DNA of 25,717 nucleotides, taken from NCBI GenBank assembly GCA_048938295.1, contig JBHLMI010000031.1:1-25717 (forward strand), given 5' to 3'. Positions 4,811 through 14,884 of the stretch are shown in pieces. The notes under the pieces were generated by a model. The model saw nothing but the letters and a program-made list of their open reading frames with translations, did not search any database and was not told where the DNA came from. Numbering within the stretch: position 1 is the stretch's first letter; each line of letters opens with the position of its first letter. The DNA comes from Promethearchaeota archaeon (lineage in GTDB: Archaea > Asgardarchaeota > Hermodarchaeia > Hermodarchaeales > Hermodarchaeaceae). Made by a program: the position numbers and the translations under genes.

Positions 4811-6190
4811 ATGCCTGAATTAAAGCGAACGGTTGGTCTTTTTGGAGCGAGTTCTGTAGGCATCGCAAATATCATCGGCGCAGGAATTTTTGTTATTAGC
4901 GGTGTTGCAGCGGGACTTGCGGGGCCATCGGTTATCCTTTCATTTTTTTTGGCTGGAATTATTGCCCTCTTGACGGCACTATCATCGGCAGAACTGGCCT
5001 CAATAATAACGGAGACAGGTGCATCCTATGTGTTTACTAAAAGAGCTTTTGGGCGTATTCCAAGCTTTTTTGTTGGCTGGTTCAAATATTTCGATTATAT
5101 GGCTGGTGCTGCAGCGGTATCCATTGGGTTTGCGGCCTATTTCACAGCACTTTTTGGATTAGTTGGTCCCTTGCCCTTGATTCTAGCCGCCGTCGGGTTA
5201 CCGATCATTTTTACAATTCTAAATATAATTGGTGTCAAGGAAAGTGCTAATGCCACCTCAATTATGGTCTTCATCAAGCTTATTGCTTTAGTCCTATTAA
5301 TTGGGGCAGGTGGGATCTACCTATTTCATTTCTTTGATATAGCGCATTTTACCCCATTTTTTCCAACAGGTTTAGGGGGTACAATAAGTGGAGCTGCAGT
5401 TATCTTCTTTGCCTTTCTTGGTTTTAACACCATTGCAATGATGTCTGAAGAAACCAAAAACCCCGAAAAGACGATTCCTCGTGCATTGATTCTCGCGTTT
5501 ATAATAACCTTTGTTCTTTACATGGCAATTGCGGTCTTGGAGATTGGCATATTGAATTGGCAAAATTTGGGAACGAGCGCATCCCCACTTGAAGATTTAG
5601 CCCGGGCAATTTCAGCTAATCCCTTATTTACGAGTTTCATTGCGTTTACTGCATTGATTGCTACCGCCTCTGTTGTCTTGAGTTCCATTATGGGTGGAAC
5701 GCGTGCAAGTTTCGCCATGGGGCGGGATAGGCTCCTTCCCCAACAATTTGATAGAGTAAGCAGCCGCTTTAGTACTCCCTATCTGTCTGTGCTATTTGGA
5801 GGCATTCTTGTTGCAACTCTTGCCGGATTATTCTTCAATAACATTGATATCATTGCGTCAATCGTGAATTTTGGAAGTCTGTTTACCTATCTATTCGTTC
5901 ATGCCTCATTAATAAAATTAAGACGCGATGCACCAGAAATACAACGCCCTTTCAAAGTTCCCCTTTATCCCATCACACCAATCTTAGGCATATTTAGTTG
6001 TATTCTGTTAATGTTCTTTCTAAGTCTCAATGCCATGATTATGGCCGCTGTTTGGTGTCTCATTGGGATTTGCGTATTGGTGGTGATGTTCCGCAAATAC
6101 CCCCAAAGCTCATTGCATGACTCCGATGTGAAATCGGTCCATCAGTTTGATGACTCCGATTTTGAAAAAGTTCCCGACCACAAAGAATAG
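4811..6190 (+). CDS. APC-superfamily amino acid permease (CAT/ApcT-like)
   Basis: About 12 TM segments; TM1 NIIGAGIF, TM6 FFAFLGFNTIA, AEL and RPFKVPLYP motifs. Start placed at ATG 4811 (MPELKRTVGLF). The 3' end overlaps the H+-ATPase gene by 81 nt. Confidence 0.9.
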   Translation: MPELKRTVGLFGASSVGIANIIGAGIFVISGVAAGLAGPSVILSFFLAGIIALLTALSSAELASIITETGASYVFTKRAFGRIPSFFVGWFKYFDYMAGAAAVSIGFAAYFTALFGLVGPLPLILAAVGLPIIFTILNIIGVKESANATSIMVFIKLIALVLLIGAGGIYLFHFFDIAHFTPFFPTGLGGTISGAAVIFFAFLGFNTIAMMSEETKNPEKTIPRALILAFIITFVLYMAIAVLEIGILNWQNLGTSASPLEDLARAISANPLFTSFIAFTALIATASVVLSSIMGGTRASFAMGRDRLLPQQFDRVSSRFSTPYLSVLFGGILVATLAGLFFNNIDIIASIVNFGSLFTYLFVHASLIKLRRDAPEIQRPFKVPLYPITPILGIFSCILLMFFLSLNAMIMAAVWCLIGICVLVVMFRKYPQSSLHDSDVKSVHQFDDSDFEKVPDHKE

Positions 6191-8566
6191 GAGCGCATAT
6201 CCCCAGATAAAAGCTGCAAGCCCCCAGCCAATAGCAGGCATAAGAATACCAAAAACAGCCATGATGGTCGCTAGCAACTGTGTGAGTTCTGCTGTTAGGA
6301 AAAGACGAAGGGCAGGAAATGGCCGGTGCCAAAAAGAATGCGATCGAGTTCGAGTTAAATAAATAGTCATATGACCCGCAACGGCAAGCTTGAGAAAGAT
6401 TAGTGCTTGAAGTGTTAGGAGATCGAGGTGAAACACAACCAAGCCAAGGTAGAGAACACCAAAGCTGGCCAAGACACCCAGGACACCAAGGCTGGTGGCA
6501 AGGATTAGGATTCTAGCCGAGTCCCAGCGAACGGGTTTTCCTGGGGGTACAGCGTTATCAAAGGCAATCATCATTATGGGCAAATCATTGAGGAGGGCAA
6601 GAACGACGATCATAATTGCGTTAATTGGGTAAAAATTGAAGAGAAGGATAGAAAATGTAAGAAAGAACAACACCCGCACCGTCTCAGCAATGCGATAAGT
6701 CGAATAGCTATTCATGCGTTCAAAGATTTGCCGACTCTGCTTAATAGCATCAATAATCGCACAAAGTCCCGGTTTTGTAAGAACGAGATCCGCCGCCGAT
6801 TTGGCTGCATCTGTGGCACCAGCCACCGCAATACCGGTATCTGCTTTTTTCAGCGCCGGTGCATCGTTGACGCCATCTCCTGTCATTCCCACAATATGAT
6901 TTTTCTGTTGCAGGAGTTTCACGATATCATATTTATGTTCAGGAAAAACCTGTGCGAACCCATCAGCTTTTTCCACAAAATCCTGAACTTCACTATCGGA
7001 TTTTGCTAAAAACTCTGATGCCAGCAAAATGTTTGTGCCTAACTTAATTTGTTGAGCAATCTGTTTAGCAATGGCTATATGATCGCCTGTCACCATCTTA
7101 ACATCTAAACCCATGGTTTGAGCCGTTTTTATTGTATCTGCGGAATCGTCACGAGGAGGATCATAAAGAGCGATTAATCCTACAAACTGCCAAGCTCCTT
7201 TTGAATCCGTCTTAGTCACACCTAAAGCTCGAAACCCTTTTTGTGCAAAAGCATTAACCTGATCATCGAGATCCTTCGATAACGTCTTTTTATCCGCTAT
7301 TAAGCCAAGAATAACTTGGGGTGCACCCTTGGAAACCTTGAACTGATCTTTACCCGCTTCTATAATGGTGGCTTCTGTACGTTTTGAAACTGGGTCAAAT
7401 GGCTTAAAGGTTAGGGTTTCAAATGACGAATATTGGCCATTATCTGCTTGTTCTGCCTTATTTTTAACAATGATTGCGGTATCAATCGGGTCTTTATCTT
7501 CTTCCCGGGATGCAAGAGCTGCCAGTCTGATGACATCTTGGCTTGTAAAGTTCTTTTGTGGGGTAACATCCGCAACAACGATTTCATTTTTTGTTATCGT
7601 ACCTGTTTTATCTGAGCATAAGACATCCACACCGGCCATTTCCTGAATGGTACGAAGTTTTGACACAATGATGCCATGTTGAGTCAAATTGAGTGCACCA
7701 ACCGCCAAAGTCACAGAAAGAACCGCTGGCAAGGCAACAGGAATGGCAGCTATTAACAGCACTAACGAAAATTGCAATGTCTCTAGAATTGATTCATGGC
7801 GAAGAAAGGATGCAACAAAGATTATAGCTACCAGAGCGACAGCGAGTACGATTAGATAATTTCCAATTTTTATTACGCTCTCTTGGAAGTGACTGCGGGT
7901 TTTCGCTTCCTCTACAAGTTGTGCAGTTTTGCCAAAGTACGTCTGCATCCCGGTAGTGATGACGAGTCCATTCATTTCACCTCGTCGAACAATGGATCCT
8001 GAATAGGCTACATCTTCCAGCTTTTTTTCAACAGGAAGCGACTCACCGGTTAAGGTTGATTCATCTGTCTGTAGATAATCGCCTTCTATAAGTTTCAAAT
8101 CAGCTGGAATCATATCACCAAGTCGAATCCGAACGATATCTCCTGGTACCAGTTCCCGCGCTGTAACCTCGATCCATTTTCCATTTCTTAATACTCGGGC
8201 CTGGGTGGCTAATTTTTGTTTTAACAGCTCAATGGTGTCATCTGCCTTCTTCTCTTGCCAGAACCCAACAACGGCATTAATCATTAACATGACAAGGATG
8301 ACTGCAAAATCTTCCCAATGTTGTATGACAGCTGATAAGATTGCAGCCGCTTCAATCATCCAAGGTATAGGTCCCCAGAAATAGCTAAGAAATTTAAGAA
8401 AGGGATTTTTCTTCTTCTCTACTATCTCATTTGGGCCAAACACTTGTCTGCGCTTAGAAGCTTCGTCAGAAGACAGGCCTTTCGAACTTGTTGACAGAGT
8501 TTTCATTATATCCTTTGTCGATTTTATTTTCGCTTCGTCCGTTGTGATTCTTTTTGGTTCTGCCAA
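6110..8566 (-). CDS. Plasma-membrane proton-efflux P-type ATPase (type IIIA)
   Basis: TGES, DKTGT phosphorylation motif, KGAP, TGD and GDGVNDAP. TM4 IPVALPAV and TM6 LLND are characteristic of P3A pumps. GPIPWMIE motif. TTG start with GAGGGAG ribosome-binding site. Confidence 0.92.
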   Translation of the reverse strand: MAEPKRITTDEAKIKSTKDIMKTLSTSSKGLSSDEASKRRQVFGPNEIVEKKKNPFLKFLSYFWGPIPWMIEAAAILSAVIQHWEDFAVILVMLMINAVVGFWQEKKADDTIELLKQKLATQARVLRNGKWIEVTARELVPGDIVRIRLGDMIPADLKLIEGDYLQTDESTLTGESLPVEKKLEDVAYSGSIVRRGEMNGLVITTGMQTYFGKTAQLVEEAKTRSHFQESVIKIGNYLIVLAVALVAIIFVASFLRHESILETLQFSLVLLIAAIPVALPAVLSVTLAVGALNLTQHGIIVSKLRTIQEMAGVDVLCSDKTGTITKNEIVVADVTPQKNFTSQDVIRLAALASREEDKDPIDTAIIVKNKAEQADNGQYSSFETLTFKPFDPVSKRTEATIIEAGKDQFKVSKGAPQVILGLIADKKTLSKDLDDQVNAFAQKGFRALGVTKTDSKGAWQFVGLIALYDPPRDDSADTIKTAQTMGLDVKMVTGDHIAIAKQIAQQIKLGTNILLASEFLAKSDSEVQDFVEKADGFAQVFPEHKYDIVKLLQQKNHIVGMTGDGVNDAPALKKADTGIAVAGATDAAKSAADLVLTKPGLCAIIDAIKQSRQIFERMNSYSTYRIAETVRVLFFLTFSILLFNFYPINAIMIVVLALLNDLPIMMIAFDNAVPPGKPVRWDSARILILATSLGVLGVLASFGVLYLGLVVFHLDLLTLQALIFLKLAVAGHMTIYLTRTRSHSFWHRPFPALRLFLTAELTQLLATIMAVFGILMPAIGWGLAAFIWGYALLFFVVGNFFKIGVIKLMDRFHIGVMQ
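6117..6167. repeat. Imperfect direct repeat with 33-nt period inside the convergent gene overlap
   Basis: ATGACTCCGATGTGAAA (6117-6133) and ATGACTCCGATTTTGAAA (6150-6167). In frame in both genes: FKIGVI...FHIGVM in the ATPase and HDSDVK...DDSDFE in the permease. Confidence 0.65.
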
Positions 8567-8601: not shown

Positions 8602-9546
8602 TTAGTCTGGATAAATTATTGTTCCTTCTTTTCCATGTAAGCTTATTTCAACATTTTCGATGGAAGTAATGATGGCCTGTTTACCGCCCGCTTCGATGAA
8701 ATCGATAGTGGCTTCGATTTTGGGTTGCATGCTTCCTGGTGCGAAGTGACCCTGAGCAAGATATCGTTTGGCATCTGATACTGGTATCTTGCTGAGGGCA
8801 GTTTGGTCTGGGCGACCATAATGTAGGTAGGCTCTTGGAACATCAGTAAGAATGACTAAAGTTTCTGCCTTGATAAGTGTGGCTAAAAGAGCTGCGGCAT
8901 GGTCTTTATCAATTACCCCTTCTACTCCCTCAATCTGTCCATCTTTTTTGCGGATAATCGGTACTCCACCTCCTCCTGAGGCAATCACAATGACTCCTTG
9001 ATCATATAGATATTTGATGGAAGGACCTTCGATGATTTCGTGGGGAATGGGCGAGGGGACCACTCGGCGAAAACCGCGCCCACTGTCATTGATTATGGTC
9101 CATCCTTTCTCTTTGCGAAGCTGCGAAGCCTCTAATGCCGTATAAAACGGACCAATTGGTTTGCTAGGCTTCTCAAATGCGGAATCTTCTTTATCCACTA
9201 CAGTTTGAGTGAGTATCGTTACTACAGGCTTTTTGATTGCAGCAAGAGCTAATTCGGTGGTTAGACTTTGTTGAAGCATATACCCGATCATTCCTTGACT
9301 TTCAGCGTTGCAGATATCAAGGGGCATTTGTGGAAGTGATGATTTTGCGAGTTCATTCTTCAAGAGGATATCGCCGACTTGGGGACCATTGCCGTGGGTA
9401 ATCGCTATATGGTAGCCTTTTTGAATTAACTTGACTAAGTGCTTTGCAGTTTCACGGACATTTCTAATTTGTTCTTCCGCTGTTCCTTTGTCTTTGTGTT
9501 TAAGGATTGCATTTCCACCTAAGGCGACTAAGATGTTTTTATTCAT
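8602..9546 (-). CDS. arcC: Carbamate kinase
   Basis: ALGGNA, THGNGPQVG, KPIGPFY, GFRRVVPSP, GVEGVIDKD and GSMQPK motifs. AGGAG ribosome-binding site. Confidence 0.97.
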   Translation of the reverse strand: MNKNILVALGGNAILKHKDKGTAEEQIRNVRETAKHLVKLIQKGYHIAITHGNGPQVGDILLKNELAKSSLPQMPLDICNAESQGMIGYMLQQSLTTELALAAIKKPVVTILTQTVVDKEDSAFEKPSKPIGPFYTALEASQLRKEKGWTIINDSGRGFRRVVPSPIPHEIIEGPSIKYLYDQGVIVIASGGGGVPIIRKKDGQIEGVEGVIDKDHAAALLATLIKAETLVILTDVPRAYLHYGRPDQTALSKIPVSDAKRYLAQGHFAPGSMQPKIEATIDFIEAGGKQAIITSIENVEISLHGKEGTIIYPD

Positions 9547-9570: not shown

Positions 9571-10449
9571 TTAATATCGTCTGATTCCAGTGACCACACA
9601 TATTTTCACCCCGTTATAATTACGAGAAATATGCATGGCTAACATATCGACAGGATCATAGTTTGGATAGCGAAGGCATAGTTCTAACACAGCATCAAGT
9701 TCTGTTGTTGTGTCAATCTTTGTATAGGGTAGATCTCGAAATTCTCTTTTGATATCCTTTCCCTCAGGCCCATGCGTATAAATGGAGTCAAAGGGTCTCT
9801 GATACTTCTCATCAATATCTTCCCATTTCAAGGGACTTAATGGATGATTGGGCAAAACACACGCAATAACAATCGGTGCTTTGCTAATAAGTTCCTTATC
9901 GACTAGTTCTTGAAACCCATAGGCTGTAGCATAGGAGAGGTTCATGTTCGCCGCTGGGATAAAGACATAATCGGGACGCCACTCCATTAACTCATATGCA
10001 ATTGGAACATCGCCTTTCCAACGTTCCAGTTCTCCTGGTGACGCATCAATTATGTCCCTATCTTCTGAAATCTGCTCTCCATGCTTGTATGTCTCAAAGT
10101 AATATTTCCCGGTAGCTTGGACTTTGGCCCCAAATTGCTTAATGGTATTAAGTTTAGTATCTGTTCGTCCCTCAGGAACAAGGATGAGGGCATGATCCCT
10201 CATCCAATATGCTCCTGATATACCGGCATTACCTTCAGAGACAATAAGATATTGTTTGTCACGACCGTATTTGTTAATGACCCAATAGGTTTCGCGATCT
10301 TTATGGCTTCCAGAAGGATTGGTATATTCTAATTTTAGGAAACATTCCAAGTACTCATCGTAGATTACGGGTGTATAGCCCACTTGAGGGTCAATGGGTT
10401 TTTGTTTGTCTTGTGAGGTTCTCATTTTAGCTTTTCCTTCTGTAAGCAT
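9571..10449 (-). CDS. Fold-type II PLP-dependent enzyme, divergent and shortened threonine-synthase-like protein of unknown reaction
   Basis: GYTP, KLEYTNPSGSHKDR (Schiff-base Lys), SEGNA, GAKV, IAYEL...PDYVFIP and terminal VVTG. ATG directly abuts the ADI stop codon (TAAATG). Confidence 0.8.
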   Translation of the reverse strand: MLTEGKAKMRTSQDKQKPIDPQVGYTPVIYDEYLECFLKLEYTNPSGSHKDRETYWVINKYGRDKQYLIVSEGNAGISGAYWMRDHALILVPEGRTDTKLNTIKQFGAKVQATGKYYFETYKHGEQISEDRDIIDASPGELERWKGDVPIAYELMEWRPDYVFIPAANMNLSYATAYGFQELVDKELISKAPIVIACVLPNHPLSPLKWEDIDEKYQRPFDSIYTHGPEGKDIKREFRDLPYTKIDTTTELDAVLELCLRYPNYDPVDMLAMHISRNYNGVKICVVTGIRRY

Positions 10450-11757
10450 TTATCCGCGTCGAAGTGCACAAGTCATACAATGGGCTCCGCCGTATCCTCC
10501 TGTGAGATTGGGTAGTACAATTGGATAGATGTCTATTCCATGCTGGTAGATTCCTCTTTTATGGGGAAAGAACTCGCTTTGATTCTTTAAAGTCTTATAG
10601 TCTTTTTCAGCTTGGGCAAGTAATTTTTCATAGCGTTGTGGCTCGGATTTAGCCTTGGTCTGTAGGTTTTCAAGGACTGCCTTCACATCGCGTTCAACTT
10701 CTATTGCGAGGATTGTTCCATCCCGGATGCAAAGGAAATTGGAAGCGTATGCAAGTTGTTCGAGCGTCGTTATACTGATTAAATCCAAGCCTTTGTCCTT
10801 GACATAGTCGTGAAGGTTTGTGGTTGTTTTTTCTTTTTCATATTCCCCTGGTCCTTTTCGATGATATATTTCCACGATTGCCTGTCTTAAGAGTAAGTCA
10901 AGACCAATTACGACGCTGCTTGAAGCTACATTGAAGTAAGTGTCCAAGTGCATGTCAACCATTGGATCTGGTTTCTTGCTTGGGATGAGAGGATGATTAG
11001 GTTGGTGTACAACGCCCACCTCATCAAAATTGAGGCCATATCTGAGCATTTGTTCTACTCCTGCTTGGTTTGAGCGATCTCCAAGCCCTACTAACGCGAA
11101 ATCTTTCATAGGGATAAAATCGCCTCCCTCAAAGGTTCCTGGTGCTTGAGTTTCATGGACTACATTAGCAGCTATTATCTCCCATAGGAAACGAGTAATC
11201 TTTGGCTCTGACCGTCGCTGGGGTTTACTCATGCGGGAGAGAAAAATCCCTTTATCTGTAACTGCTTGTTGATCTCGCATGAAATAGAGATTAGAGAGGG
11301 GTTGTCTTTCTGTGATGTTCAGGTGGATCGCTCTGGTTCCTTTCCCCGTTTTTAATTGTATCAACGGATTTAACAAGAGGGTTTTAAAGAAGTGGTCAAC
11401 GTCTAAGAGTGGTTCGTTCTTGTTCAATTCGTTACGAGCTAGCGCTATATCGGATTCTGAACCTTTGATATCGATGGTCGCGTGAGCTAAGTCAACGAGT
11501 TGTTGTCTGATAGTCGGATTCACATCAGCTGCATTTAATATGATGTCTTTCATTTTTAGAACATTCACATTAAGTTCGTGACGAAGAATATATTCGAGTT
11601 GTTTGTGTTCTTCTCGTGCTCCATATCGGCTGAAAGCCCGTTCATAAAGTGATGCAAAGGGTTCGAGAAGTCCGAAGAACATCTCAATACCTGGTTGATG
11701 AATCACAACCGTTTTGAGCGAATCCCATTCTGCACGAATTTTTGTTTCCATTATCAT
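10450..11757 (-). CDS. arcA: Arginine deiminase
   Basis: AEW, NLYFMRDQ, FEGGD, MHLDTY and C-terminal GYGGAHCMTCALRR with the nucleophile Cys. ATGA overlap with OTC and a GAGGTG ribosome-binding site; the real start may be the second Met at 11751. Confidence 0.95.
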   Translation of the reverse strand: MIMETKIRAEWDSLKTVVIHQPGIEMFFGLLEPFASLYERAFSRYGAREEHKQLEYILRHELNVNVLKMKDIILNAADVNPTIRQQLVDLAHATIDIKGSESDIALARNELNKNEPLLDVDHFFKTLLLNPLIQLKTGKGTRAIHLNITERQPLSNLYFMRDQQAVTDKGIFLSRMSKPQRRSEPKITRFLWEIIAANVVHETQAPGTFEGGDFIPMKDFALVGLGDRSNQAGVEQMLRYGLNFDEVGVVHQPNHPLIPSKKPDPMVDMHLDTYFNVASSSVVIGLDLLLRQAIVEIYHRKGPGEYEKEKTTTNLHDYVKDKGLDLISITTLEQLAYASNFLCIRDGTILAIEVERDVKAVLENLQTKAKSEPQRYEKLLAQAEKDYKTLKNQSEFFPHKRGIYQHGIDIYPIVLPNLTGGYGGAHCMTCALRRG

Positions 11758-12695
11758 CCACCTCTAGATTCTTTGTGACCTAACATTAGATCTAAAATTC
11801 CGATAGCCCCATAGAGCTTGTTTTCGCCTTGTTGCCACACTATTGATTGGCTACCTTCAATGACATTGTCAGTGATTTCAAGCCCACGATGGGCAGGTAA
11901 GCAGTGCATCACAAGGGCATCTTTTGCTGCCACTTTTAGGAGAGCATCATTGATTTGATAGCCCTGGAAGGCTTTCAATCGCTTTTGTCGTTCTTTATCT
12001 TCACCCATGCTAACCCAGACGTCAGTGTATAAGATATCGGCGTTTTTTGCTGCTTCCTTTGGGTTTTCCACAATTGCGATTTTTGAGCCAGTGTTGAGGC
12101 TAAGTTGCTTTGCCTGTTGAAGAATTTCGTCTTTAGGGTAGTACCCCTTTGGACATGCAGCAACCATGTTCATGCCCATCATTGCTGCGCCAAGCATCAG
12201 CGAATGGCACATGTTGTTTCCATCGCCAATGAAGGCTAATGTGAGCCCCTTGAGATGACCTTTTGCTTCTTTAATAGTAAAGAAATCACAGACTATTTGT
12301 GTTGGGTGTTCAAGGTCGCTGAGTCCATTGATAACAGGTATGTTAGCGTATTGTGAGAGCTGCACAACCGTGTCATGTGCATAAACACGAGCTATGATTG
12401 CGTCTAGATACCCACCAAGAATGCGTGCTGTATCCTTTATGGGTTCTCCACGGCTTAGTTGAAGTTCACTTGAGGGTAGATAAACGGCTTGACCACCGAG
12501 TCGAAGGGTAGCTACTTCAAAACTGGTGCGAGTGCGGGTGGAGGGTTTTTCAAAAAGTAAACCCACCACTCGATCGCTAAGAGTAGTTACCGATTTTTGC
12601 TGTTTTACTTGAGATTTCAGTTTACTAGCTCGCTCAAATAGGGTGTCAAAGTCCTGTTGGGTTAGATCAGTGATCGATAGGAATGCTGATTTCAT
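11754..12695 (-). CDS. arcB: Ornithine carbamoyltransferase (catabolic role inferred from operon context)
   Basis: FEKPSTRTR, HPTQ, DVWVSMG and MHCLPAHRG motifs. AAGGTG ribosome-binding site. Confidence 0.95.
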   Translation of the reverse strand: MKSAFLSITDLTQQDFDTLFERASKLKSQVKQQKSVTTLSDRVVGLLFEKPSTRTRTSFEVATLRLGGQAVYLPSSELQLSRGEPIKDTARILGGYLDAIIARVYAHDTVVQLSQYANIPVINGLSDLEHPTQIVCDFFTIKEAKGHLKGLTLAFIGDGNNMCHSLMLGAAMMGMNMVAACPKGYYPKDEILQQAKQLSLNTGSKIAIVENPKEAAKNADILYTDVWVSMGEDKERQKRLKAFQGYQINDALLKVAAKDALVMHCLPAHRGLEITDNVIEGSQSIVWQQGENKLYGAIGILDLMLGHKESRGG

Positions 12696-12714: not shown

Positions 12715-14307
12715 TTAGTCCGTAGCAGTGTATTTTGAGTTCTCCCAGTACGCCCATGCAAAGATGATTATGCTAAACACGGTCAGGACAATCATGTCGA
12801 AGGGCATCGGAATAATCCCCAAGGGACTAATGAATCCTGGGAAGTTTTGATAGACGAAATTAGTGTCGCCGATCAGAGACATCACCATGATGCCTAAGAT
12901 ATAGACGAAAATCCAAAGGTTTCGTTTGATTTCGAAGTCATGGCGTCTTAGTGTAAGATACAATGGATACCCAATAAGCATCAGGATTCCGCCAACTAGG
13001 GTCCATGGCCAAGAAGCCCAATAGACCAGGAGCGTGGCAAAGATGAATCCAAGTCCAGTGATAATGACTGGAATCGGCAGTTTAAATGGTCGTTTTACGT
13101 CTGGTTTAGTTTTTCGAAGGATTGGAACGGCAAGAGCTGCTGCGGCATAGGGTACAAGCGCTGTTATTGAGGCAATCAATGCTACAGATGGAAAGTTCGG
13201 TATGAAAATCTGAATTATCATTGTGAGAATCGTTGCGAAGATTAGAGCGATGTATGGGGTTCCAAATCGAGGATGGACTTTCTCCATTGGTCCCCAGAAG
13301 AGCTTATCGTGTGCCATGGCGAAGGGAATACGTCCTTGAAGAAGGACCCAGTCGCCTCCGGCACCTGCAGTGCTAATCACAGCTCCAATGACAGCGACGA
13401 TAGCTAGAATTGGTAAGCCAGCTGCCAATGCAACATTTGCTAGTGGGGAGCTAAGATTTCCAATACTCCCCCAATCGCCTACCGTTAAGCCTAGTCCGGT
13501 CCAGTTGATTAATCCTGTAAATGCAATGCCTAACAGAATGTATGTTACGATTACAATACCTATGGTTATTAGCATTGCTCGGGGAATGGTTTTGCTGGGA
13601 TTCTTGATTTCTTCTGTGGGAACAACTACTGATTCAAAACCAGTAAATGCCCAGAATTCAAAAGCCATCGCTAATGTGATGCCGGTTAAGCCAAAGGGCA
13701 GTAACGGAAAGAAATTCGTCCAGTTAAGAACTGCCAAACCGACGCAGATGAAAGCAATCAATGGGACTAGTTTTCCGATAGTGGTAAATACACTATACCA
13801 GCCGCCCCATTTTACCCCCACTAAGTTGATGATTGTAAAGATCCACAAAGCAATGACAGCAATTGCAATTCCTAGTGGTGTCAATGTCTGTCCTACAGCT
13901 AAGGCGGGGAAGAAGAAGCTGAGGTAGGTAATGAAGATGTCGATGATTGCCGCGGTGCCCACAAACGCGTAAAGGAAGTACCCCCAACCCATAATAAACC
14001 CGCCTAAGTTACCCAAGGCTAATCTGGGAAGTGAGTAGGGTCCTCCAGTTTTGGGAAACGCTGATCCAAGCTCTGCATAGGAAATAGCTAGCAGAGTAGT
14101 CACCAGTCCAGTTAAAAGGATTGCAATGATGAGAGCAGGCCCAGCAACTGAGCCCATTACAGCAGGCATAGCAAAGACGCCTGAACCGATAATACTACCA
14201 ACACCAAGGGCTACAAGCATCCAGAGACCAAGCTCTCGTTTCAACCCTTTTTTATCCGATTCTCCCTCCATTGATGAGGAAGAAGTTGATTTTGATTCAT
14301 TCGTCAT
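12715..14307 (-). CDS. APC-family transporter, probable arginine/ornithine antiporter (ArcD/AdiC-like)
   Basis: First gene of the ADI operon. TM1 IIGSGVF, TM6 FWAFTGFES and TM8 GGDWVLL retain the GSG, Trp and Glu positions of AdiC-type arginine antiporters. About 14 hydrophobic segments. Confidence 0.85.
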   Translation of the reverse strand: MTNESKSTSSSSMEGESDKKGLKRELGLWMLVALGVGSIIGSGVFAMPAVMGSVAGPALIIAILLTGLVTTLLAISYAELGSAFPKTGGPYSLPRLALGNLGGFIMGWGYFLYAFVGTAAIIDIFITYLSFFFPALAVGQTLTPLGIAIAVIALWIFTIINLVGVKWGGWYSVFTTIGKLVPLIAFICVGLAVLNWTNFFPLLPFGLTGITLAMAFEFWAFTGFESVVVPTEEIKNPSKTIPRAMLITIGIVIVTYILLGIAFTGLINWTGLGLTVGDWGSIGNLSSPLANVALAAGLPILAIVAVIGAVISTAGAGGDWVLLQGRIPFAMAHDKLFWGPMEKVHPRFGTPYIALIFATILTMIIQIFIPNFPSVALIASITALVPYAAAALAVPILRKTKPDVKRPFKLPIPVIITGLGFIFATLLVYWASWPWTLVGGILMLIGYPLYLTLRRHDFEIKRNLWIFVYILGIMVMSLIGDTNFVYQNFPGFISPLGIIPMPFDMIVLTVFSIIIFAWAYWENSKYTATD

Positions 14308-14437: not shown

Positions 14438-14884
14438 TTGCCAGTAGACGAGCTAGATCGTTACATAATTAATTGCTTATGCCAGGGCGTTTTTTCATAC
14501 TCGGATTTAGCTGAGATTTGCAGCACAACACGCAGTACAATCTATCGTAGAGTAAAACGCCTTGAGGACCTTGGAATCCTTGACAAGAAAGTGATGGGAA
14601 TAGTGAATTTCCAAAAACTCAATCTTTCGGGTATCTGTATTGGGATTGATGTGAAACAGGGCGAAACAGACGAAGCATTAAAGATTTTGAGTGGCCATGA
14701 ACCCGTTAAAATGCTTTTGAAATCCTATGGCACATATCACATTTTTGCGATGCTTTTCTGCGAAAAGGGTCGTGAAGGGGAAACCATTTCCAAACTCCGT
14801 GATGTATTACAGAAATTCCATTTGCATAAATTTGATGTAAGTATTGGATTTGAATGGTTGAAAATAAACCTCACACCATTCTAA
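14438..14884 (+). CDS. Lrp/AsnC family transcriptional regulator
   Basis: N-terminal HTH VDELDRYII...SYSDLAE...STIYRRVKRLEDLGIL followed by a RAM-like domain (SYGTYHIFAML). Divergent from the arc operon. Confidence 0.88.
   Translation: MPVDELDRYIINCLCQGVFSYSDLAEICSTTRSTIYRRVKRLEDLGILDKKVMGIVNFQKLNLSGICIGIDVKQGETDEALKILSGHEPVKMLLKSYGTYHIFAMLFCEKGREGETISKLRDVLQKFHLHKFDVSIGFEWLKINLTPF

Follow-up and report, generated by a model that had tools for sequence, protein, structure and literature searches.

We analyzed a 25,717-nucleotide stretch of DNA from a Promethearchaeota archaeon (contig JBHLMI010000031.1; hereafter the window), and in particular its gene for a 292-residue fold-type II pyridoxal 5′-phosphate (PLP) protein, P0001, which occupies positions 9571-10449 of the minus strand (ORF translation). 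This gene is one of six co-oriented minus-strand open reading frames (ORFs), in the order amino-acid permease, ornithine carbamoyltransferase (OTC), arginine deiminase (ADI)-fold protein, P0001, carbamate kinase (CK), and H+-ATPase, with intergenic gaps of 19, −4, 0, 24, and 35 nt. An earlier note on this DNA, made from the sequence alone, had placed the ORF between an ADI-fold gene and a carbamate kinase gene, and this is where it lies. P0001 matches Pfam PALP (PF00291; we use PALP for the protein and its gene alike) with 75 bits against a gathering cut-off of 35, the match being limited to residues 20-195.

The first gene of the operon encodes an APC-family amino-acid permease (12715-14307, minus strand; Pfam AA_permease_2, 180 bits); the second encodes the OTC (11754-12695, minus strand; TIGR00658, 413 bits vs. 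a cut-off of 281), with a 4-nt overlap with the ADI start; and the third, the upstream neighbor of the PALP gene, encodes a divergent ADI-fold protein (10450-11757, minus strand; Pfam ADI, 160 bits) with a C-terminal ...HCMT... Cys motif. The CK gene (8602-9546, minus strand; TIGR00746 (arcC), 411.7 bits vs. a cut-off of 358) lies 24 nt downstream of the PALP gene and has a GGAG Shine-Dalgarno (SD) sequence, and the co-oriented run ends with the gene of a P-type plasma-membrane H+-ATPase (6110-8566, minus strand; TIGR01647, 1024 bits vs. a cut-off of 616). A gene for an Lrp/AsnC-type regulator (14438-14884, plus strand; Pfam HTH_AsnC-type) is divergent. In sequence, the ADI-fold protein is only remotely similar to arcA of bacteria (88 bits vs. 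a cut-off of 489 with the NCBIfam arcA model; ∼35 bits with ADIs in the PDB); it defines a distinct archaeal ADI type, of which ten further genomes of this phylum encode orthologs with 62-68% identity. That its substrate is arginine is an assumption only. Linkage of a P3A-type H+-ATPase to this ADI is conserved and not special to the window, since the pump adjoins the orthologous ADI in four other genomes (loci L165, L166, L168, and L173; 55-59% identity in three of them), and the unit is an ADI/proton-pump operon, probably for acid stress or energy. Elsewhere in the source genome, a second OTC is encoded on contig C57 (21067-21978; 429 bits, above the cut-off), and a pair of neighboring genes for carbamoyltransferase-like proteins (272 and 240 bits, under the OTC cut-off) is present at positions 33201-35249 of contig C61, ∼3 kb from the canonical threonine synthase (ThrC) gene of this genome.

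P0001 has two possible starts. Its first ATG (10447-10449) comes immediately after the TAA of the ADI gene, which the earlier note had read as a sign of translational coupling; the junction is as described, but coupling is one of two options, because an SD-like GAAGGA stands 9 nt upstream of the second ATG (M9, 10423-10425), which was taken as the start in an independent gene call. A 91% identical metagenomic copy, P0002, keeps both Met codons. A codon-by-codon check gave the motifs S48-H49-K50-D51-R52, S71-E72-G73-N74-A75, A136-S-P-G-E-L-E-R143, P165-A-A-N-M-N-L171, D265-P-V-D-M269, and V285-V-T287-G288. The PLP-anchoring residues Lys50, Asn74, and Thr287 are thus kept, and the ThrC substrate motifs are altered to SEGNA, ASPGELER, PAANMNL, and DPVDM, all as quoted in that note.

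Lys50 (10300-10302, minus strand, as are all codons given here), in SHKDR, is the predicted Schiff-base lysine and aligns with the ThrC and L-serine dehydratase (SDH) SFK lysine. The S71-E72-G73-N74 "asparagine loop" (10228-10239) has a variable second position: its Glu72 is confined to the clade of P0001 and its two nearest relatives, P0002 and P0003; SSGN occurs in most members, and others have Thr (STGN) or Cys at that position. Arg143 (10021-10023) is invariant in the cellular members and, in a HMMER alignment to 2zsj, corresponds to the Arg of the ThrC NSxNPxR motif. The Gly-rich PLP-phosphate loop is replaced by P165-AANMN-L171 (9937-9957), in which Asn168, aligned with the Asn of the ThrC GNAGN loop, is invariant, viral members included. 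Thr287-Gly288 (9586-9591) aligns with ThrC LTGHG, Thr287 being the predicted residue at the pyridine N1, and the protein ends 4 residues later. Among 31 aligned cellular members, Lys50, Asn74, Asn168, Arg143, Asp265, and Thr287-Gly288 are invariant, as are three family-specific motifs, SHKDRET, CVLPNHP, and SIYTHG.

Structure prediction, which had been suggested as a check, gave an AF2 model of a two-domain fold-type II protein (31-sequence alignment; pLDDT 87.7). The model superimposes on threonine synthase 1uim with a Z-score of 28.3 over 264 residues (rmsd 2.5), with residues 21-292 covered, and nearly as well on CysK (Z 26-27) and TdcB (Z 26.3). Because the alignment extends over residues 21-292, the two-domain core is complete in the model, with a C-terminal half that is trimmed and re-decorated and not missing; the shortening of this half noted earlier therefore holds for overall length (292 vs. 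∼350 residues in ThrC) but not for the core, which was aligned to residue 292. Altogether, P0001 is firmly established as a real, selected fold-type II enzyme that probably binds PLP.

To no known enzyme can P0001 be assigned by curated profiles: it reached none of the NCBIfam models for ThrC, Ser/Thr dehydratase, CysK, or SbnA (15-62 bits vs. cut-offs of 167-580). With the ThrC models it scored 15.3 vs. 167.1 (TIGR00260), 61.8 vs. 266 (NF004996), and 58.2 vs. 421 (NF004170), and the best dehydratase model, NF006094, gave 42.6 vs. 331. The source genome carries a canonical ThrC on contig C61 (422 residues; 197.7 bits vs. a cut-off of 167.1) and nine other full-length PALP genes besides. We therefore conclude with confidence that P0001 is not ThrC and that it belongs to a distinct, uncharacterized family. 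The label "threonine-synthase-like" suits its best structural match; the family profile, however, finds its best solved relatives in L-serine dehydratases (1pwe, 3e-15), marginally ahead of ThrC (2zsj, 3.6e-13), and by structure CysK and TdcB are almost tied with ThrC. Diaminopropionate ammonia-lyase (DAPAL; YgeX) comprises ∼400 residues, and the DAPAL model NF006058 was not among the P0001 matches at E ≤ 0.01, which bears out the earlier statement that P0001 does not resemble this enzyme. OrtB, the beta subunit of 2-amino-4-ketopentanoate thiolase, has ∼470 residues and is encoded with OrtA and ornithine aminomutase genes; P0001 is likewise unlike it in size, no OrtA or ornithine aminomutase neighbors were seen in the window, and the hit lists held no OrtB-specific model. 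Two members from metagenome-assembled genomes (MAGs) bear the NCBI label "PLP-dependent lyase/thiolase", an ESM Atlas feature search returned unnamed PALP clusters only, and our literature searches found no publication on the family.

Among 5.8 billion proteins searched, relatives formed 108 clusters (46-91% identity, ∼270-290 residues), almost none of them named. When 1.84 billion representatives were searched exhaustively with a profile, only eight matched at E ≤ 1e-30, the full-length matches were all of 248-281 residues, and past those eight only generic matches to the N-terminal half appeared. By these searches, the family is a compact one of ∼280 residues. Its named records come from MAGs mostly labeled Bathyarchaeia or Bathyarchaeota, with others from Korarchaeia-type Thermoproteota, Culexmicrobium, Verstraetearchaeota, and Heimdallarchaeaceae. 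At ∼80 other family loci, ADI, OTC, or CK genes were within reach at none. The gene order GlmS - PCMT - (TrpB2) - FEN1(-) - PALP(+) - EF1B recurs in a large set of related loci, ∼30 of which also contain a polar-amino-acid ABC operon that is mostly convergent with PALP and on the same strand in L023; the best model for its binding protein is the lysine/arginine/ornithine subfamily, at 105-129 bits and thus below the cut-off of 256. Other solitary members adjoin ArgRS, an ATP-grasp gene, SHMT, or a TnpB fragment. P0003 lies ∼100 nt from a divergent TnpB-like (Cas12f1-like_TNB) fragment of 158-161 residues (L020, 7410-8837; L021, 410-1837; L022, 5819-7246), which hints that its sub-clade travels with mobile elements.

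The closest relatives of P0001 are P0002 (locus L141), whose gene stands in the same ADI-PALP-CK-pump order as in the window, and then P0003 (59% identity), which is not arc-linked; our tree unites all three, with 100/100 support, in a clade within the cellular members. In the ten genomes with orthologs of the window ADI, loci with visible flanks have the order permease-OTC-ADI-CK with an ADI-CK spacer of 24-40 nt, and no gene stands between ADI and CK in any of the ten loci; moreover, these spacers hold no recognizable insertion remnant. The family was not found in five whole-searched genomes having orthologous arc operons, nor in any of the 18 other genomes of the same class, and the source genome is the only one with it among 400 sampled genomes of the phylum. 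Because the orthologous operons lack the gene and the family was not found elsewhere in the sampled phylum, the comparison indicates that the PALP gene was transferred from another phylum and inserted, in the lineage of the source genome only, into a complete permease-OTC-ADI-CK-(H+-ATPase) operon. It would therefore be an accessory to the arginine-to-ornithine route and not a step of it, and it is clearly not a conserved arc component. The gene is nonetheless kept: between the source genome and L141 its dN/dS is 0.096 at a dS of 0.41 (0.115 for the adjacent CK), so purifying selection acts on it.

The full-length members that diverge most, P0112-P0120 (24-35% identity), make up a derived, long-branched clade on archaeal-virus contigs, with terminase, HNH, PrimPol, PolB, and Gad1 genes; one contig is an IMG/VR UViG, and an IMG/VR scan found one viral contig only, from the same sample as L084. 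Five of the viral loci have PALP upstream of QueC. In L085 (819-2167) and L086 (287-1742) PALP is directly upstream; L083 (7001-8713) has a 53-residue ORF between the two genes; L088 (434-2076) reads DpdA-PALP-QueC; and L084 (identical to L087; 5806-10283) reads QueE-QueD-PALP-QueC-DpdA-FolE. Two more have PALP inside such clusters, namely L089 (57-2793; QueE-QueD-DpdA-PALP, then the contig end) and L186 (5203-8944), where PALP is followed by an unknown protein of 246 residues in the order FolE2-PALP-unknown-DpdA-like. The exception, L185 (4383-5165), has no 7-deazaguanine genes and encodes P0120, in which Tyr replaces the Schiff-base Lys and Gln the Asn of SxGN; an RFC-like AAA ATPase gene is on one side and, further on, a Gad1 anti-Gabija gene, and the sequence suggests that P0120 is possibly a non-catalytic derivative. 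Neither the 246-residue protein encoded downstream of P0115 nor the 183-residue one downstream of P0120 is a QueC (hhalign probability <1%).

The QueC proteins adjacent to viral PALPs match PHROG profiles with an amidotransferase-type region in their N-terminal part, but the match is confined to the C-terminal part (phrog_1550, positions 145-361 of 418; phrog_10428, positions 257-472 of 476), and by this comparison the proteins lack the glutaminase domain of Gat-QueC. In known phages, a FolE-QueD-QueE-QueC-DpdA set leads to dPreQ0, and Gat-QueC, a fusion of a glutamine amidotransferase (Gat) domain to QueC, leads to dG+ where it replaces QueC (PMC6884629). Apart from NH3, the viral clusters provide for every co-substrate of the FolE-QueD-QueE-QueC-DpdA route, and the simplest role for the extra viral gene would therefore be that of an NH3-releasing PLP lyase. 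The viral PALP looks like an undescribed component of 7-deazaguanine DNA-modification pathways. Complex prediction for viral PALP with the adjacent QueC (0.01 and 0.00 vs. a mark of 0.32), run without controls, gave no evidence either way. Adjacency to QueC is found in the viral clade only, and the window PALP has CK downstream; a link to tRNA archaeosine in the host was considered and dropped, as the source genome has no clear QueC.

We propose, with a probability of roughly 40%, that P0001 carries out α,β-eliminating, ammonia-releasing chemistry on an imported amino acid. Lyase chemistry is suggested by the SDH-like family profile, the position of the viral members in the place of the Gat domain, the amino-acid transporter neighbors, and the logic of an operon that yields NH3 and ATP and exports protons. 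A further parallel is the pairing, in the genus of the source genome, of the housekeeping CK with a different ammonia-lyase-type PALP (described below). A PLP-dependent α,β-elimination by P0001 would convert the imported amino acid to NH3 and a 2-oxo acid, so that the operon would yield additional ammonia as well as a fermentable keto acid; in viruses, PALPs would supply NH3 to QueC-type enzymes, replacing the glutaminase domain of Gat-QueC. The earlier idea of a new ammonia-lyase is in this respect still the most plausible one, on the strength of the profile and the genomic contexts.

Several observations weigh against this proposal. No ligand or residue pattern settles the reaction type of P0001. 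Its PLP-phosphate loop, AANMN, is not Gly-rich; the relatives have SADLT or SANHT, and an Asp is unusual at a phosphate site. Arg143, as the counterpart of the Arg that binds the substrate phosphate in ThrC, fits a phospho-amino-acid substrate and a replacement reaction, and the SSGN of most members is the loop form of serine racemase. Among the viral members, L186 has no adjacent QueC and P0120 has neither Lys nor Asn. Synteny with the ABC operon is weak evidence, because the genomes concerned are related and the operon is convergent in most of them. Finally, the pathway already makes two NH3, and an additional producer is not obviously needed.

The main rival is a β- or γ-replacement synthase in the style of CysK, SbnA, or ThrC, which would join an activated amino acid (such as O-phosphoserine or O-phosphohomoserine) to a nucleophile to give a non-standard amino acid or, in the viruses, a further-modified 7-deazaguanine or its precursor. 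This is on balance unlikely. ThrC is the best structural match, with CysK close behind, SbnA and CysK models are among the profile matches, the invariant Arg143 aligns with the phosphate-binding Arg of ThrC, and in L186 the PALP gene sits between FolE2 and the unknown protein and DpdA-like gene, with no QueC. However, the remaining ThrC and CysK substrate motifs are lost, no activating enzyme (Ser/homoserine kinase or acetyltransferase) is a conserved neighbor, and the cluster of L084 consists of exactly FolE-QueD-QueE-QueC-DpdA plus PALP; as it shows no QueF, the base would bear no amine to act as the nucleophile. That P0001 might be a true minimal threonine synthase is scarcely credible: although its nominal best single-sequence matches are ThrC models and structures, every ThrC model scores far under its cut-off, STGNT, NSxNP, and GNAGN are changed, a canonical ThrC is encoded elsewhere in the genome, and the family contexts have nothing to do with Thr biosynthesis. 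There is only a slim chance that P0001 is an amino-acid racemase or epimerase akin to the serine and aspartate racemases. In racemases of fold-type II, the second Ser of SSGN serves as the re-face base, and this loop form in most members, the A65S human SDH entry 4h27 among the top profile matches, and racemase structures in the fold-match lists all speak for it, but the Glu of the window clade and the Thr or Cys of other members at that very position, together with the lack of an evident use beside QueC in the viral clusters, do not.

The arc-specific reading of the earlier note, in which the enzyme would provide an additional ADI-pathway step with ornithine, citrulline, or arginine as substrate and Glu72 as the contact of the basic side chain, is now improbable. 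The tight spacing inside the operon, the presence of Glu72, and the resemblance, below cut-off, of the ABC binding protein beside cellular members to the lysine/arginine/ornithine subfamily would agree with it. It fails because none of the ∼80 homolog loci is arc-linked, the orthologous operons lack PALP, and the family is missing from five genomes that have such operons; the association of homologs with arc genes that was to have been its touchstone is therefore missing. Nor is Glu72 the telling feature it had seemed, being restricted to P0001, P0002, and P0003, the last of which is not arc-linked. Furthermore, fold-type II PLP chemistry requires a β or γ leaving group, and ornithine, citrulline, and arginine have none. 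Pathway variants for canavanine, β-guanidinoalanine, or Dap were set aside, the OTC being bona fide by score and the orthologous operons lacking PALP. A mere passenger, landed by chance, or a scaffold or regulator without PLP chemistry, is also improbable. Such a role would fit the absence of PALP from all orthologous operons, the TnpB-like fragment next to the nearest outgroup P0003, the viral member without Lys and Asn, and the non-canonical phosphate loop. It sits poorly with a dN/dS comparable to that of the adjacent CK, with the invariance of Lys50, Asn74, Asn168, and Thr287 in 31 cellular members, and with operon-like spacing kept in two diverged copies.

A bolder form of the lyase proposal, which we regard as rather doubtful, is that the family is a PLP-dependent ammonia-donor module that delivers NH3 to an ATP-dependent partner encoded downstream, namely QueC in archaeal viruses and CK in the source genome. 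It would act as a non-glutaminase "amidotransferase" subunit and, with viral QueC, would lead to preQ0 or dG+ DNA. In the genus of the source genome, the CarB model was reached in none of the 13 genomes, and a housekeeping CK is present in 12 of the 13; with no CarB-type match in the genus, CK may therefore be an anabolic source of carbamoyl phosphate. At the four loci inspected, in the source genome (contig C8; L144, 1441-3491) and three congeners (L182, L183, and L184), this CK is divergently paired with a different, 321-residue PALP that resembles serine racemase/threo-3-hydroxyaspartate ammonia-lyase (436 bits vs. a cut-off of 452). A fold-type II ammonia-lyase thus stands beside CK twice in the source genome, and the lyase may conceivably feed NH3 to CK. 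To our knowledge, the known ammonia-channelling amidotransferases all have a glutaminase, amidase, or asparaginase module; if the ammonia-donor reading is true, a PLP lyase would be a new solution for amidotransferases and would explain 7-deazaguanine DNA in some archaeal viruses without Gat-QueC. Apart from this, the window offers an example of an ADI/proton-pump operon extended by one foreign gene, disposes of the tempting but unsupported idea of an extra ADI-pathway reaction on ornithine or citrulline, and introduces a compact, well-folding, uncharacterized PLP family of ∼280 residues with clear candidate substrates.

Among known systems, class II ThrC (Thermus thermophilus 1uim, Aquifex 2zsj) shares with P0001 the fold type, both domains, the S-x-K-D-R Schiff-base Lys, the SxGN loop, the phosphate-loop Asn, the NSxNPxR-aligned Arg, the D/E-P motif, and the C-terminal TG. 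P0001 is only 18-24% identical to it and ∼60 residues shorter (292 vs. ∼350) and, unlike ThrC, has neither an N-terminal extension nor a tail past TG. STGNT, NSxNP, and GNAGN of ThrC become S(S/E/T)GNA, SPGxx, and (S/A)A(N/D)xx in the family, and P0001 scores 4- to 10-fold under curated ThrC cut-offs, with a real ThrC in the same genome. L-serine dehydratases and SDH-like proteins (1pwe, 1p5j, and 2rkb; 3e-15 to 1.5e-13 with the family profile) have a near-identical SSGNAG(I/M)(S/A)xAY loop and a common W-x-G (ERWRGD vs. LIWEGH). However, this alignment is limited to the N-terminal ∼150 residues, the tetraglycine phosphate loop of SDH is missing in the family, the family has SHK where SDH has SFK, and its CVLPNHP and SIYTHG motifs are not in SDH.

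At the level of gene clusters, the E. coli ygeW-ygeX-...-yqeA cluster encodes the ammonia-lyase DAPAL with a carbamoyltransferase and a carbamate kinase, and the window likewise combines the gene of a fold-type II PLP enzyme with those of a transcarbamoylase and a carbamate kinase; it differs in that its transcarbamoylase is a bona fide OTC and has an ADI-fold partner. The Gat domain of phage Gat-QueC (PMC6884629) occupies a genomic position equivalent to that of the viral PALP: each immediately precedes, as N-terminal domain or as upstream gene, a QueC-type ATP-dependent enzyme to which ammonia must be supplied, in the same type of cluster. Unlike Gat, which is an Ntn-type amidotransferase, the viral PALP is a PLP fold-type II protein encoded by a separate gene, and by analogy of position the two would be functional equivalents.

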